Shown here: one piece after another, positions 18,787-58,337 of the stretch
Layout of the letters: the number at the start of each line of letters is the position of its first letter
Numbering within the stretch: position 1 is the stretch's first letter
Assembly: GCA_019057475.1 (NCBI GenBank)
Contig: DXJO01000046.1
Coordinates: 1-64,000, forward strand
Source of the DNA: Candidatus Thorarchaeota archaeon
Lineage (GTDB): Archaea > Asgardarchaeota > Thorarchaeia > Thorarchaeales > Thorarchaeaceae
Direction of reading: 5' to 3'
Length of the DNA stretch: 64,000 nt
Notes under the pieces: model-generated
Seen by the model: only the letters and a program-made list of their open reading frames with translations
Databases searched by the model: none
What the model was told of the DNA's origin: nothing
Position numbers and translations under genes: made by a program

Positions 18787-19033
18787 AGTAATCGCCTCGG
18801 GGTCTTTGCTCAGGCGCGGCATTGCGGTTTAACTAGTTTCGGATACGGAGTTTGCACCATTCGAGGCGCTCTCACGCCAATCATGAATGACTGCAGATCT
18901 ACAGTCAAATGTGGGTCAATGTGTTCAGGACTATCAAGTCTCCTGCAATTGTTGTGGGTGTTTTGGGGATAATACACGGGTCTTTTTGGCCTGCATGGAC
19001 AAGGGAGATGGGCCATGGACCGGAGGTGCCCAG

Positions 19034-20608
19034 TTGACTGAGGAGTCCTCAAACCGTATATGCAGAGCATGCAAGAGCAAAGGTGCCACTCACCTGTGTG
19101 AAGATTGTGGAGCAGTGCTCTGCTCGAATTGTCTTGAAACCAAGTCTACATCTTCATACGTATGCAAAGATTGTCATAGTATATTGGGCACTCCGTTGCC
19201 CGGGCAAAGGTTTGAGGAATGCAGTGACTGTGGGTCTGAGAATCTGAGTGTAGGTAGGCGGATGGAGGAGATATGTCCCGAGTGTCACTCTACCCGCACC
19301 ATCTTGGTGGATGTTAAGCAAAGGAGCATCGCACAAGAACTCAGGCAGGCAATCAACAGCTTGCAGTATGGCCACATAAAATTGAGAGAACTCAATAACA
19401 GACTAATCGGAGCAAAGCGCCTGCTCGTTTCCTTGAGGATGGCTAACTTCTTGCACTATAGGTGGCTGGATGACAAAATCCAGAGCACACAGGAGGAGCT
19501 ACCCGCAATCAAGAATCGGATAGGAAACCAAGCAGACATGTTAGCCAGGCAAATTGCAGCTGAAACAAAGGGTTTGATGAACACTGCCTCCTGGTCCGCC
19601 TCCCAGTTTCCGTTCATTGAAGGTGTTACAAACAGGGTGACGCATCTGGTCAACCAGTACAAGCACTCTGTGGACGAAGCATTGAGTGAAGCCGATCTTA
19701 CCTTGAAGGACATTACAAAGCAACTAGACGGATTGAACTATTACCGGTCACGGTTCTCTGGTTTTTACGAGCAAACTGAACTCTCAATCAACGAACTGCC
19801 TGTCTGTGCGCTACCCAAAATCAAAGTCACAGGGAGCGACTTCCTCAAGCATGACAAGGCAACTGGCACTCTCTTCATCACGAACAGGAGACTCGTCTTC
19901 ATTGGGCAGACAGGTGTTGTTCGCAAGAAAACTGAGATTATCTTTGACTTTCCGCTTCTCTACCTGACCTCTATCGAGGAGGATGGTAGATTCAGGAAGA
20001 GAATTGTTCTGAAGATGAAACAAGGCGAAGTGAAGATTTCCTGCAGTGAGCAAACGAAGAAAGTACTACCGGATTACGTCGAGATTGCTAAGAAGTTTGA
20101 CAGGTATATGCAGACAGACCTGCAGAAGGTACGGAAACTAGAGCAGGTAAATGTCAACGTAAGCGACGTCAGACTCAGGATTGAGGACCTGATTTATTCG
20201 TTGAATACGGGAAGGAATAGACCGAGATCCTGTATGACATACCCACAGACACCGGCTGGAGCGTACTATGCTGAGCCATCAAGTCCCCAACCGAGGTATG
20301 CCCACCGCGATTACGGAAGCTATCGTCAAGGGGCTCAACTCAAGGACCACCTGGAGAGGACAATAGATAGACGTGCATATCAGCAGTATCCAGGTGCAAG
20401 AGGCGAGATGGTGGCAGAAATTGAAACCCTCAGGAGAAACGCATCATCTTTGGACAACGCATTACGTGATACTGTTCATCTCTTCAGGGGAGGAAGACTT
20501 GTTCCAGAGGATTTCATCAGACGGTACAAGGGACTGATGCGTGACTCATACTATACAAGAAAAGAAATCGAAAGAAAATCTTCAAGAGACGCGGGCTACT
20601 ACAGGTAA
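19034..20608 (+). CDS. ESCRT-associated multidomain protein: Zn fingers, coiled coil, PH/GRAM(GLUE)-like domain, steadiness-box-like C-terminus
   Basis: GGAGGTG RBS before TTG 19034; six CxxC; GTLFITNRRLVF; LDNALRDTVHLFRGGRLVPEDFIRRYKGLMRDSY; adjacent to the ESCRT-III gene. Confidence 0.7.
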   Translation: MTEESSNRICRACKSKGATHLCEDCGAVLCSNCLETKSTSSYVCKDCHSILGTPLPGQRFEECSDCGSENLSVGRRMEEICPECHSTRTILVDVKQRSIAQELRQAINSLQYGHIKLRELNNRLIGAKRLLVSLRMANFLHYRWLDDKIQSTQEELPAIKNRIGNQADMLARQIAAETKGLMNTASWSASQFPFIEGVTNRVTHLVNQYKHSVDEALSEADLTLKDITKQLDGLNYYRSRFSGFYEQTELSINELPVCALPKIKVTGSDFLKHDKATGTLFITNRRLVFIGQTGVVRKKTEIIFDFPLLYLTSIEEDGRFRKRIVLKMKQGEVKISCSEQTKKVLPDYVEIAKKFDRYMQTDLQKVRKLEQVNVNVSDVRLRIEDLIYSLNTGRNRPRSCMTYPQTPAGAYYAEPSSPQPRYAHRDYGSYRQGAQLKDHLERTIDRRAYQQYPGARGEMVAEIETLRRNASSLDNALRDTVHLFRGGRLVPEDFIRRYKGLMRDSYYTRKEIERKSSRDAGYYR

Positions 20609-20610
20609 CC

Positions 20611-21234
20611 TCAAATGCCTAGCTCGCTCTCCAGAGATTTGATAGCTTCTTCGAGTTCATCGGTCTGGCTGGCAGGTCTAGTGTCAGTTGAGGCTTCTGC
20701 TAGTCCTGCCTCCTTGTCTATCTCTTGCATGGAAGCAGCCAAATCATCCGTTGTGATCTCCGGCATCGTGGCATGAAATGCATCATCAGCGATACCACTC
20801 TCGATTTCGAATTCCTCTAAGCGCTGAGCTATCTCATCGACATTAGCGACTACCTTCGTGGCATCGGTTGCATTTCCCAGCAACCCAAGGATCTTGGCGA
20901 CCTCATCCATGGCGCGATTCGTCTTGGCAGCTGTCTGCGCACGGTTGACATGAGCGAGAATTTTGAGGATGTTGAGCCGCGACCTATCAACAGAAAGCGC
21001 AAACCTACGAAACCGGACCATCTCGGTCGCATAGGTTCGAAATGCGTTCACCTGTCCGGCCTTGCGTGCACGCACAGCCCTGCTCTTAGTTCCCCGCTCC
21101 TCCTTCTCGAGCTTGTTCCGTTGTCGTTCCAGCTGCTTCGCTAATATTCGCAGCTCGCTCTTGACTTCTCCAATGTCGGGTTTCTTCCGACCCCAAGAGA
21201 AAGCCTTTTTTATTGTACCCAAGTGCCTCACCAA
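20611..21234 (-). CDS. ESCRT-III subunit, Vps2/24/46 (CHMP1-3)-like, Snf7 family
   Basis: Basic helical hairpin LRILAKQLERQRNKLEKEE...KAGQ...RTYA.E.VR; acidic C-terminal half; MIM1-like ELEEAIKSL. Confidence 0.9.
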   Translation of the reverse strand: MVRHLGTIKKAFSWGRKKPDIGEVKSELRILAKQLERQRNKLEKEERGTKSRAVRARKAGQVNAFRTYATEMVRFRRFALSVDRSRLNILKILAHVNRAQTAAKTNRAMDEVAKILGLLGNATDATKVVANVDEIAQRLEEFEIESGIADDAFHATMPEITTDDLAASMQEIDKEAGLAEASTDTRPASQTDELEEAIKSLESELGI

Positions 21235-21411: not shown

Positions 21412-22641
21412 ATGTCAGGATCAGATAGCGACAGGTTAGACATTGGGCTCAAGAATCTACTCGACAAAGCGATAGAGTTGGACAATAGAGGAATGAAGAA
21501 AGAAGCTTGTCAGTACTATCTGCGAGCCAGCAAGATTCTCATCAAGCTCTCAAAGTCTACGTCCCTCCCTTCTGTTCGAAAGCATTACTTCAAGCGAGCC
21601 CAGGAGTGTGTTGATAGAGTCCGATACCTCTCAGGAATCAAGAAGAAGGCCCGTGGGCCAGTTGATGGCCTGCAGACTCCTCTAAAGAGCGATATCAGAG
21701 CAGTCACTGAGTCGGCTGTTAGTAAGCGACCTGATGCCACTCCCGAGCCAGACGAAGATACTAAGAGGCTCCAAGAGATGATTGCGGATACAATTGTCAC
21801 AGAGCGCCCCAACGTCAATCTGTCCGAGGTCGCCGGTCTCGACGATGCAAAACAAGCCATCTACGATGCGATACTGGCACCGATGAAGCATCCAGAGTTA
21901 TTCAAAGGAAAAGCGAGGCAGCCGTGGAGAGGCATCCTGTTGTACGGTCCAGCGGGCTGTGGGAAGACATTGATAGCGAAAGCAGTTGCAGCCGAAGTCA
22001 ACGCCACATTCTTCAACGTGTCAGCCGCCAATATAGTGAGTAAATGGCTTGGCGAATCTGAACGTCTAGTCATGCGCCTCTTTGAGATGGCAAGAAAGAA
22101 CCAACCAGCAATCATCTTCATGGACGAGCTGGATTCAATTGGCGTTTCAAGGTCCGGGGATGATGTTGGAGGCGAAAGGCGGCTAAAGACTCAGTTGTTA
22201 ACAGAGCTGCAGGGTCTCGCAAGCGACCAGAATGAGAGAATTACGCTAATTGGCGCAACCAATCTCCCGTGGGAATTGGACTTTGCTTTGAGGTCCCGTT
22301 TCGAGAAGCGAATCCATGTACCGCTACCGGATAAGAGAGGACGAAAAGAGATTTTCAGGATTCATATCGAAGATGTAGAGTTAGCATCAGAAGTGGACTT
22401 TGAGGAGCTTGCAAGTCTTAGTGAGGGGTACAGTGGAAGGGACATCGGTGTGGTCTGTAGAGAGGCGGCAATGGAACCCATAAGAGACCTTCAGAAGACA
22501 GGAAGAATGGAAGAGGAAGCGGAGATACTGAACCTTCGCCCTGTTTCGAGAGAGGACTTTCTTGGAGCCATTGAGAATATCAGGCCAGCGACGTCCCCAG
22601 AAGATATCAAGAAGTACATTGACTGGGCGGAGGGGTCGTAG
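21412..22641 (+). CDS. vps4: Vps4 AAA ATPase (MIT domain + AAA)
   Basis: MIT AIELD...EA...Y; VAGLDDAK, PWRGILLYGPAGCGKT, SKWLGESE, FMDELD, ATNLPWELD, EGYSGRDI. Confidence 0.95.
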   Translation: MSGSDSDRLDIGLKNLLDKAIELDNRGMKKEACQYYLRASKILIKLSKSTSLPSVRKHYFKRAQECVDRVRYLSGIKKKARGPVDGLQTPLKSDIRAVTESAVSKRPDATPEPDEDTKRLQEMIADTIVTERPNVNLSEVAGLDDAKQAIYDAILAPMKHPELFKGKARQPWRGILLYGPAGCGKTLIAKAVAAEVNATFFNVSAANIVSKWLGESERLVMRLFEMARKNQPAIIFMDELDSIGVSRSGDDVGGERRLKTQLLTELQGLASDQNERITLIGATNLPWELDFALRSRFEKRIHVPLPDKRGRKEIFRIHIEDVELASEVDFEELASLSEGYSGRDIGVVCREAAMEPIRDLQKTGRMEEEAEILNLRPVSREDFLGAIENIRPATSPEDIKKYIDWAEGS

Positions 22642-22644
22642 GGC

Positions 22645-23373
22645 TTGGGTATCAAGGAGCGACAGCGAGAGAAGAAGAAGACAGAAGAACCTGTCAAAGA
22701 TGCTGCCGAGCCCTCGGTGGTTATGAAGCAGACTACTGCTAGTGATGATTCCGCACACATACCAGAGATTGTTGTAAAAGTGGATGGTGGGTCCAATGCA
22801 ACTGACACCATCGAAACTGCTGTCGTTGAACCAGAACAAATGATGGACACTGAAGCGGCCGCCGTAACCGAAATCGTGCCGCGATGGGGGAACATAGGAG
22901 AAGCTGAGTGGATGTACAACATTCCCACGAGGTCGCAGGACCTGGTTCTCTGGGCCGAAGAATGGGGAGACTTCCTGCTTGAATGGACAGAATTCGAGAA
23001 GATTCATGTTCTCTCTGTTTCAGCATTCATTTCGAAACCCCCATTCAAGGACATACTTGGGAAAGTCAAAGCCTTTAGATCAATCGGAGACTCGTTAGTT
23101 GGGAAAGATGTTGCTGCATGGCTTGATCGGAATAGAGAACAACTCAGAGTGTACTGGAGACCACTGGGGGAGTGGGCGGACTTGGTCTACAGATGGGCTC
23201 TGGACACAGGCATACTTCGTCTCGATGTGAAGTCACTGGTCATCCAAGAAGCAGAGCAGGCTTTTTCGAAACTTCCTGAAGAGGACATCCACGGGATAAT
23301 GGCTCTACTTGTTGAGAGGGGATTTGCCAAGTGGGTTGATAAAAAAGCTGGGGCTATTGTTGTCAAAGTCTAA
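22645..23373 (+). CDS. vps25: ESCRT-II Vps25-like protein with acidic N-terminal extension
   Basis: W..EWGDFLLEW and VYWRPLGEWADLVYRWA..TG match Vps25 WH1/WH2. Confidence 0.85.
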   Translation: MGIKERQREKKKTEEPVKDAAEPSVVMKQTTASDDSAHIPEIVVKVDGGSNATDTIETAVVEPEQMMDTEAAAVTEIVPRWGNIGEAEWMYNIPTRSQDLVLWAEEWGDFLLEWTEFEKIHVLSVSAFISKPPFKDILGKVKAFRSIGDSLVGKDVAAWLDRNREQLRVYWRPLGEWADLVYRWALDTGILRLDVKSLVIQEAEQAFSKLPEEDIHGIMALLVERGFAKWVDKKAGAIVVKV

Positions 23374-23378
23374 TCGAT

Positions 23379-24137
23379 TCAGGCTTCGGAAGTGCCTCCG
23401 CTCTCTGAATCATCTCTTGATCTCAAACCAGGGAAGTAATATCGTCCACCCGTGCTGAATCTGATGTCGGCAACAGCCATGCCGGCATCCACTAGACTAG
23501 TGAGAACCTGACGAGCGTGATCTTCTGACCACTTCAGGTTCATCATGACCTCTTCAATCGAAACGTACCCCTTCAAGGCCGCCAAGTTAATTACATCGGA
23601 TTGGTCTCGACGAAGCTCAAGGGGACGAAGCTCCACGACCTTTACGCCTCCTCTCAGAGTTCGTATGCCGGGTATTAGACCGTGTTCGGCGACTCGGTTC
23701 ACTGCCTCGATAACATCACTGAAGCTTACTGCCTTGAATTGAGGAAGCCGTTTAACCACCTCAACAATCAGCTCTGCGAGACCCATGAGTCCCTTCGAAG
23801 CGTGGATTGTGGCGACGTCAAGTATCGCCAACCCAATGTAGTCATAGAATTCGTCAAGGGTCAGACCTTGCGGAACAGACCTCATAGATTGCACAGACAG
23901 GTCCAACATATTCATTGCGTTAGGAAATCTTTCAAGGATTCTTTCATGGTCAAGGAACCGAAAGATATCCGTCCCCAGACGCCTCAGCTCACCGATGTTG
24001 GACTTGACTTCTTGAACCAGTGCCTCCGATTCTCGCTCGAATGTTCGGATTTCTACCGCACCGAGGTCGTATATCATCTTCAGCTGGTCCAACGTGGCAA
24101 TTGAAGCAAATATCTCAGTTTGAAGTCGCTCATGCAT
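23379..24137 (-). CDS. ESCRT-II Vps22/EAP30-like protein with Vps28-N-like N-terminal domain
   Basis: DEFYDYIG..I, GLMGLAEL, PLEL..DQ..V..LA...GYVS...LKWS..HA..VL..L...GMA..D, YYFPG (Vps22); N-terminal EIFASIATLDQLKMIY. Confidence 0.85.
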   Translation of the reverse strand: MHERLQTEIFASIATLDQLKMIYDLGAVEIRTFERESEALVQEVKSNIGELRRLGTDIFRFLDHERILERFPNAMNMLDLSVQSMRSVPQGLTLDEFYDYIGLAILDVATIHASKGLMGLAELIVEVVKRLPQFKAVSFSDVIEAVNRVAEHGLIPGIRTLRGGVKVVELRPLELRRDQSDVINLAALKGYVSIEEVMMNLKWSEDHARQVLTSLVDAGMAVADIRFSTGGRYYFPGLRSRDDSESGGTSEA

Positions 24138-57665: not shown

Positions 57666-58181
57666 CTATACTAATTGCTTCTTGTTTACTAACCACCAGG
57701 CGCCACGCTTACCCTTGACAATGCCCTTCCTATGCGTCACTATCTCTACACCCAAGATGGTTTTCGCTCTCTCGTTGATCTTGTCCAAGCGATCGAGTAT
57801 CGTTCGGCGTTTTCCTTGACTCCCTATCAGAGCCAGTGCGAGTTCAGGTGTTGTAGCACCTTCATGTTGTAGGAAGTATGCGAGAAGCTTACGATCAAGG
57901 TCATCCCGGCAGACTTTCGTCTTTGTCAGATCATTCAACTCGTCAAGGTATACGCTGGTCGACTGCTCCGTTTCAAGATGGCTCACCCTTGTTCTCAATT
58001 GATTGATCTCTTCGGCAAGTTCCATCACCATCGGAGGCAATTTCTCATCAAGCCTCCACAGAATTGCGGCCTTAATGAACCGTTGGCGGCCATTGGCCCC
58101 AGCAAGCCGATCTATTCGGTCTAGTGTTTTCTGATCCAATCGGATACGGATGCTGACTGATGCATTGCTTTTCTTAGTCAT
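57666..58181 (-). CDS. Ribbon-helix-helix + coiled coil + winged-helix protein
   Basis: ISIRIRLD..TL.RID.LA....R..FI..AI-like RHH; DRKLL.YF...GATT.EL wHTH. Confidence 0.7.
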   Translation of the reverse strand: MTKKSNASVSIRIRLDQKTLDRIDRLAGANGRQRFIKAAILWRLDEKLPPMVMELAEEINQLRTRVSHLETEQSTSVYLDELNDLTKTKVCRDDLDRKLLAYFLQHEGATTPELALALIGSQGKRRTILDRLDKINERAKTILGVEIVTHRKGIVKGKRGAWWLVNKKQLV

Positions 58182-58337
58182 TGCCCGACACCGCACGTGT
58201 CTGTGCATTGATAGACACAACAATTGATGCACTTGACCAAGAGAAAAAGGCTTGCCCTAGGTCAAGCGGTTAAGCGCCCGACACAGTTATAACATCAACA
58301 TCGAGGGACTCGCAAAGAATACCCTTCGGTGTGGAGA

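Follow-up and report, generated by a model that had tools for sequence, protein, structure and literature searches.

A Thorarchaeota Vps22 with a Vps28-type steadiness box in place of the ordinary N-terminal helical domain

In eukaryotes, the steadiness-box (SB) hairpins of Vps23, Vps28, and Vps37 bundle to form the headpiece of ESCRT-I, the C-terminal domain of Vps28 contacts ESCRT-II, and the winged helices of Vps22 and Vps36 carry Vps25, the recruiter of ESCRT-III (Makarova 2024, PMC10936438). Asgard Vps22 family proteins that are fused to a steadiness box have been described by Makarova et al. (2024, mBio, PMC10936438). The closest described system is the Thorarchaeota Vps22 KXH75178.1 (cog.002769, 'Vps22#'), residues 1-70 of which were assigned to the N-terminal SB of VPS28 (PF03997) with 99% in HHpred (Makarova 2024 Table S3, PMC10936438). 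ESCRT subunits are likewise joined in one chain in the UEV-Vps23-Vps28 protein HeimAB125_14070 of Heimdallarchaeota (Hatano 2022, PMC9192718). For Thorarchaeota, two-hybrid assays have revealed a self-interaction of Vps22, and it has been suggested that the ESCRT-I/II proteins may touch ESCRT-III directly (Hatano 2022, PMC9192718).

The window considered here is the whole analysed stretch of 64,000 nucleotides, which belongs to contig C26 of a 3.3-Mb Thorarchaeota assembly with a completeness of 96%. One of its genes codes for Vps22, a subunit of ESCRT-II, in its Thorarchaeota form and is composed of the following parts:

23379..24137, minus strand: Vps28N-SB::Vps22 winged-helix fusion gene (ESCRT-II Vps22-family subunit), 252 aa plus stop
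23889..24137, minus strand: Vps28-type steadiness-box (SB) domain, aa 1-83 (hhalign, library hits, model, and Foldseek)
23865..23888, minus strand: flexible linker at the Vps28/Vps22 junction, aa 84-91 (pLDDT and alignment ends)
23418..23864, minus strand: Vps22/EAP30 tandem winged helices, aa 92-240 (Pfam PF04157, SNF8, Foldseek, and secondary structure)

The reading frame extends from the ATG at 24137 to the stop codon at 23379-23381. In the list of open reading frames it opens at an upstream TTG. The start at the ATG of position 24137, which results in 252 aa, is shared by most homologues; of these, 137 were found, mostly with 252 aa and mostly named Thorarchaeota. An earlier note on this DNA had described the protein as part of an ESCRT-I subunit fused to an ESCRT-II subunit. 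Both halves have now been identified, so that the description is correct; the fusion is not new, because it has been reported for Thorarchaeota by Makarova 2024 (PMC10936438). Compared by its published description, KXH75178.1 is equal in architecture and lineage and differs in nothing essential. The Heimdallarchaeota protein differs in that its fusion remains within ESCRT-I and includes a whole Vps28, whereas the Thorarchaeota protein combines half of an ESCRT-I subunit with an ESCRT-II subunit.

The C-terminal two thirds, which had been called a clear Vps22 in the earlier note, are indeed of this type. Pfam EAP30 (PF04157) matches aa 87-224 with E 6.9e-13 and 49.3 bits against a cut-off of 26.8, and this match starts at profile position 82. 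Human SNF8 (3CUQ_A/2ZME_A) is matched with E 1.5e-17, whereby aa 92-239 of the query lie opposite residues 91-240 of SNF8. With a family profile, the SNF8 match is raised to E 5e-22, whereas Vps36 reaches just E 0.3. In the full-length AlphaFold model (mean pLDDT 82), two winged helices follow the linker, and the best PDB matches of this model in Foldseek are the Vps22 chains 2ZME_A, 3CUQ_A, and 1U5T_A. The winged helices of the fusion protein are nearer to those of Vps22 than to those of Vps36. The limits of the linker are given by the alignments, as the one with the Vps28 N-terminal domain (Vps28-N) stops at aa 83 and the one with SNF8 begins at aa 92; in the full-length model, residues 82-88 are disordered with a pLDDT below 50.

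The first 80 residues had been proposed to resemble the N-terminus of Vps28, and the strings TEIFASIATLDQLKMIYDLGAV, FERESEALVQEVK, FLDHERI, and FPNAMNML all lie within this part of the fusion protein. By profile comparison, this resemblance far exceeds chance. A Thorarchaeota-only profile of the N-terminus aligned by hhalign with Asgard Vps28-N with 99.4% and E 2.8e-21 over 80 gapless columns (aa 4-83). The same profile reached 0.3% with the C-terminal domain of Vps28, 0.7% with the N-termini of ordinary Vps22 from Asgard archaea and eukaryotes, and 0.1% with its own winged helices. In addition, 20 Thorarchaeota homologues were combined into a profile for an hmmsearch of 1.8 billion representative proteins. 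Apart from EAP30 proteins, this search yielded three proteins (P0215, P0226, and P0268) that match residues 4-88 of the query only, with E 7e-11 to 2e-8. These are full Vps28 proteins according to Pfam (E 1e-11 to 3e-17), and the match is located in their N-terminal half. The alignment of the Thorarchaeota fusions with Asgard Vps28 is gapless over about 75 residues, with an invariant IATL(D) motif and invariant G26, F61, and A74. The yeast Vps28 core (2F66_B, 2F6M_B, 2P22_B, and 2CAZ_B) is reached with E ~0.02 at query 6-68 by a profile that contains no Vps28 rows. When the whole protein and aa 1-90 were compared with Pfam as single sequences, VPS28 was not matched even at E 10. This carries no weight against the Vps28 assignment because the test is too insensitive.

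The assignment is further supported by structure prediction. An AlphaFold model of aa 1-90 (pLDDT 88.8) consists of a helical hairpin (H2-24 and H30-53) and three short helices (58-78). In a Foldseek search of the PDB, its best 11 matches were all Vps28-N chains from ESCRT-I headpieces. Superposition on Vps28 of human 6VME gave a TM of 0.74-0.78 and an rmsd of 1.5-2.0 A over 83 columns, followed in rank by yeast 2F6M, 2CAZ, 2F66, and 2P22. The alignment behind this model contained three Vps28 sequences, and the helices agree with those of the full-length model, which was derived from fusion proteins only. Thus, aa 4-83 are a Vps28-type SB domain, and both the profile comparison and the superposition suggested in the earlier note came out in favor of its reading. 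In profile and fold, this domain is like that of Vps28 (PF03997; 6VME, 2F66, 2F6M, 2CAZ, and 2P22). However, eukaryotic Vps28 continues with an ESCRT-II-binding C-terminal four-helix bundle, whereas the Thorarchaeota hairpin runs straight into the winged helices. As the C-terminal domain of Vps28 is missing, the fusion protein is not a Vps28 and carries the N-terminal domain only.

The fusion gene is one of five ESCRT genes that are located between 18.9 and 24.2 kb of the window. The other four are:

18887..20608, plus strand: 573-aa protein with Zn ribbons, coiled coil, PH, and putative C-terminal SB (Pfam B-box 3e-4, bPH_3 1.4e-3)
20611..21234, minus strand: ESCRT-III (Snf7 family) subunit (Pfam PF03357 E 2.9e-10)
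21412..22641, plus strand: Vps4 with MIT, AAA, and Vps4_C (Pfam AAA 1.9e-39, MIT 5.8e-7, Vps4_C 1.5e-6)
22645..23373, plus strand: Vps25 (ESCRT-II), convergent with the fusion gene (Pfam PF05871 E 2.4e-12, aa 105-190)

The cluster recurs in other Thorarchaeota, as seen from adjacent locus tags (for example BAJATHORv1_10428/10432 and JW779_12735/12760), with a member of the 573-aa family at a distance of four or five genes from the fusion. A second gene of the Snf7 family is present elsewhere in the source genome (contig C56:20136-20618). The Vps25 protein has an N-terminal extension of about 100 aa, which is acidic, apparently of low complexity, and without a Pfam match; additional N-terminal subdomains of Asgard Vps25 have been noted before (Makarova 2024, PMC10936438).

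The 573-aa protein contains several CxxC Zn ribbons and a bacterial-type PH/GRAM-like domain. Its architecture agrees with the Znr_PH_CC_SB family (cog.011556) of Makarova 2024, and this family has been classed among the steadiness-box proteins (Makarova 2024, PMC10936438; Lu et al. 2023). The conserved C-terminus of the protein (…GRLVPEDFIRRY…) can be placed in register with the steadiness boxes of Asgard Vps23, without statistical support. A comparison with yeast Vps23 (2F66_A) gave a weak match with E 1.7, and hhalign values were likewise weak with 17.7% for Vps28-N and 4% for the Asgard Vps23 SB. The same program does join the boxes of Vps28-N and Vps23 with 95%. Between the Thorarchaeota hairpin and Asgard Vps23-type boxes, similarity was undetectable by hhalign (0.4%).

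In the 96%-complete source genome, ubiquitin, UQ_con (E2/UEV), and Vps23_core had no Pfam match, in line with what has been published on Thorarchaeota. When the open frames of this genome were all scanned with HMMs, the Vps28-N domain was found in the fusion gene only, and the C-terminal domain of Vps28 was not found in any of these frames. The genome's only PF03997 match (57666-58232, minus strand) is due to chance (E 0.47) and belongs to a 188-aa protein that resembles a regulator with RHH and winged-HTH parts.

For the role of this protein, the reading to which we assign a probability of about 60% is, as a whole, that SB-Vps22 originated by deletion fusion and that its hairpin ties the ESCRT-II core to a partner with a steadiness box, bypassing the step of the Vps28 C-terminal domain. 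Any bundling partner of the hairpin would now be tied covalently to the ESCRT-II core, and the likeliest one would be the 573-aa Zn-ribbon/coiled-coil/PH steadiness-box protein from the same five-gene cluster. The adaptor step of the Vps28 C-terminal domain would be bypassed in a setting in which ubiquitin, UEV-Vps23, and canonical Vps28 were not found by Pfam; as the hairpin would join the ESCRT-II core directly to an upstream factor bearing an SB, such an adaptor would be unnecessary. The binding partner, be it the upstream SB protein or the hairpin itself, is to be regarded as a candidate. Four observations count against the proposed coupling: the 573-aa protein lacks a significant SB at its C-terminus in these comparisons, a Vps23-type core is unmatched by Pfam in the genome, the hairpin is without detectable similarity to Asgard Vps23-type boxes, and a 781-aa EAP30 paralogue of the same genome retains an ordinary helical domain.

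The helical domain of eukaryotic Vps22 helps in the pairing with Vps36. The main alternative, conceivable though in our view rather unlikely, is that the hairpin only stands in for this lost domain as a self-association module, so that homo-oligomers are formed without an ESCRT-I-like partner. Steadiness boxes are hairpins that form bundles, the fusion has lost the ordinary helical domain of Vps22, and a significant Vps23-type box was not found in the source genome, all of which would fit such a function, as does the self-interaction of Thorarchaeota Vps22 in two-hybrid assays (Hatano 2022, PMC9192718). However, IATLD and the other family-invariant residues are common to the Thorarchaeota fusions and to stand-alone Vps28, and their conservation speaks for the retention of a contact particular to Vps28 and against a generic coiled coil. 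Furthermore, a protein that has been classed as an SB protein in the literature is encoded in the same conserved cluster.

With regard to the architecture of Vps22, the ordinary N-terminal helical domain is replaced in the fusion protein and not added to. Ordinary Vps22 proteins of Asgard archaea (~240 aa) and eukaryotes have a common N-terminus (MGL..IE... or MRRR.G...), which the Thorarchaeota protein lacks, and the winged helices begin at residues 87-99 in ordinary Vps22 and likewise in the Thorarchaeota protein. Replacement follows from the facts that aa 92 aligns with residue 91 of SNF8, that the two proteins have 252 and 258 aa, respectively, and that the Vps22 N-terminus reaches only 0.7% in hhalign. 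The protein has the normal length of a Vps22 because the roughly 90 residues that it lost from Vps22 were exchanged for a Vps28 segment of about 90 residues. Compared to eukaryotic Vps22/SNF8/EAP30 (3CUQ_A, 2ZME_A, and 1U5T_A), the fusion protein is thus alike in its winged-helix core and overall length, and the adjoining Vps25 gene is a further likeness to the eukaryotic system. The difference is that eukaryotic Vps22 has a helical region of about 90 residues at the N-terminus, and the Thorarchaeota protein has the Vps28-type hairpin instead.

A length of 252 aa and winged helices that begin at aa 92, both as in human Vps22, could also be expected if the N-terminus were an ordinary Vps22 helical domain that has diverged in sequence, and the lack of a single-sequence Pfam match to VPS28 even at E 10 would be compatible with this. 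This explanation is very improbable and is refuted for aa 1-83 by hhalign (0.7% with ordinary Vps22 N-termini against 99.4% with Vps28-N) and by the fold search, in which the top matches were all Vps28-N. Also, the proteins matched in the library are Vps28 proteins, and the N-termini of other Asgard Vps22 are visibly different and eukaryote-like. Accordingly, neither an ordinary Vps22 helical domain nor a sequence without any likeness to Vps28 was found at the N-terminus. That the steadiness box shares its ancestry with the helical domain of ordinary Vps22 was considered as well and is unsupported (hhalign 0.7% and 3.5%).

The replacement of the helical domain by the steadiness box is restricted to particular lineages. 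Among 301 Asgard species-representative genomes, the full-length form (query 1 to ~248) is confined to the order of the source organism, where 75 of the 76 genomes of the same family and the single genome of a sister family have it. Other Asgard matches start at query ~71-113 and in some genomes already at ~19-48. The survey suggested in the earlier note therefore resulted in a conserved, lineage-specific fusion; it adds to cog.002769 that the fusion is not general and that most Asgard Vps22 carry a eukaryote-like N-terminus. That an assembly or gene-calling error has joined two genes, as could happen locally where vps28 adjoins vps22 in many Asgard genomes, has a negligible probability and is refuted by the recurrence of a 245-260-aa frame in 75/76 family genomes and in more than 100 protein clusters from independent metagenomes. 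Nor is there any read-through of the C-terminal domain of Vps28 or the helical domain of Vps22, both of which are cleanly absent.

Canonical Vps28 (Pfam positions 2-188) is present in nearly all other ESCRT-bearing Asgard families. A canonical stand-alone Vps28 was not found by Pfam in the order of the source organism (76 genomes of its own family and 1 of the sister family). Weak Pfam matches to VPS28 occur in 6 of the 76 genomes of the family, and the three that were checked belong to a different protein of about 410 aa; the VPS28 match of the sister-family genome (G108) is the fusion gene itself.

The gene order in other lineages suggests how the fusion gene originated. A comparison of coordinates revealed that vps28 immediately precedes vps22, in the same orientation, in about 50 genomes from 13 other families (f4, f7, f8, f12, f13, f14, f15, f16, f19, f21, f26, f27, and f28). 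At locus L015, a UEV-Vps23-like gene is followed by the genes for Vps28 and Vps22, and the frames abut. As this adjacency suggests, the fusion gene would have been created by an in-frame deletion between adjacent and co-directed vps28 and vps22 genes. The deletion would have removed the C-terminal four-helix bundle of Vps28 together with the N-terminal helical domain of Vps22; with one end in mid-vps28 and the other where the first winged helix of vps22 begins, it would yield exactly the Thorarchaeota gene.

Further fused clusters were found by an HMM scan of the library matches. These are P0121 with 254 aa and two proteins with a longer linker:

L029:6001-6900: P0126, 299 aa, from a MAG labelled Odinarchaeia
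L030:6001-6948: P0127, 315 aa, from a MAG labelled Ranarchaeia

Both P0126 and P0127 are encoded within ESCRT clusters (vps25, vps4, ESCRT-III-type context). The gene for P0126 is located between an E2/UEV-type gene and the gene for Vps25, with ubiquitin and RING genes nearby. No full-length orthologue of either protein was found among the 301 species-representative Asgard genomes. In a tree of the winged helices, the fused forms are found at three places, which requires three changes; placing them in a single clade was not rejected by an AU test (p 0.07).

Two other proteins of the source genome are related to the subject. The 781-aa EAP30 paralogue is encoded on the minus strand of contig C31 (L032:4788-7133). 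In its C-terminal ~200 aa, two winged helices (E 5e-20) are preceded by a helical domain of the ordinary Vps22 type (HMM E 1.5e-5), and the protein matches Pfam EAP30 with 24.4 bits, slightly below the cut-off. The N-terminal 570 aa contain a coiled coil and otherwise no known domain, and a protein-atlas search with this part returned its own cluster alone. Relatives with 730-810 aa are common among the library matches, and a gene for an Arf-like small GTPase is located nearby (L032:8426-9307). The layout with a long N-terminal part, a helical domain, and two winged helices recalls Vps36. The second protein has 411 aa, is encoded on the plus strand of contig C40 (L024:1501-2736), and is conserved Thorarchaeota-wide. 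One of its orthologues (L020) reaches 24.2 bits on PF03997 (positions 10-185) and has a weak BAR match in addition; the family profile matches the C-terminal domain of Vps28 (2J9W_A) weakly with E 0.086. From these sequence matches, it may be a diverged Vps28-like-BAR protein, for which 'BAR-SB' in Table S3 of Makarova 2024 (PMC10936438) is to be compared. Either of the two proteins could take part in an ESCRT complex of Thorarchaeota.

Beyond the literature, the present analysis adds the restriction of the fusion to particular lineages, the replacement of the Vps22 helical domain, and the fact that canonical Vps28 was not found by Pfam in the order of the source organism. It further adds the vps28-vps22 gene order pointing to a simple deletion and the fusions in two other labelled Asgard classes. 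The fusion had been regarded beforehand as a Rosetta-stone link between ESCRT-I and ESCRT-II. The fusion is real, but as a link it merely restates the connection of the two complexes that is known in eukaryotes. As a tentative extension, the upstream ESCRT machinery of Thorarchaeia might be one ubiquitin-independent particle, held together by the hairpin of Vps22 and the C-terminal hairpin of the Zn-ribbon/PH protein, and this short-circuit might have arisen repeatedly. Such a particle would unite the headpiece of ESCRT-I and the core of ESCRT-II with the recognition of membrane and cargo. With an ESCRT-I module covalently attached to the core of ESCRT-II, the fusion shows, as is already found in the literature, that the two complexes were linked before eukaryotes arose and that the wiring of this link is variable. 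For Thorarchaeota, the fusion would represent a naturally simplified system for the ubiquitin-free recruitment of ESCRT-III by upstream ESCRT factors.
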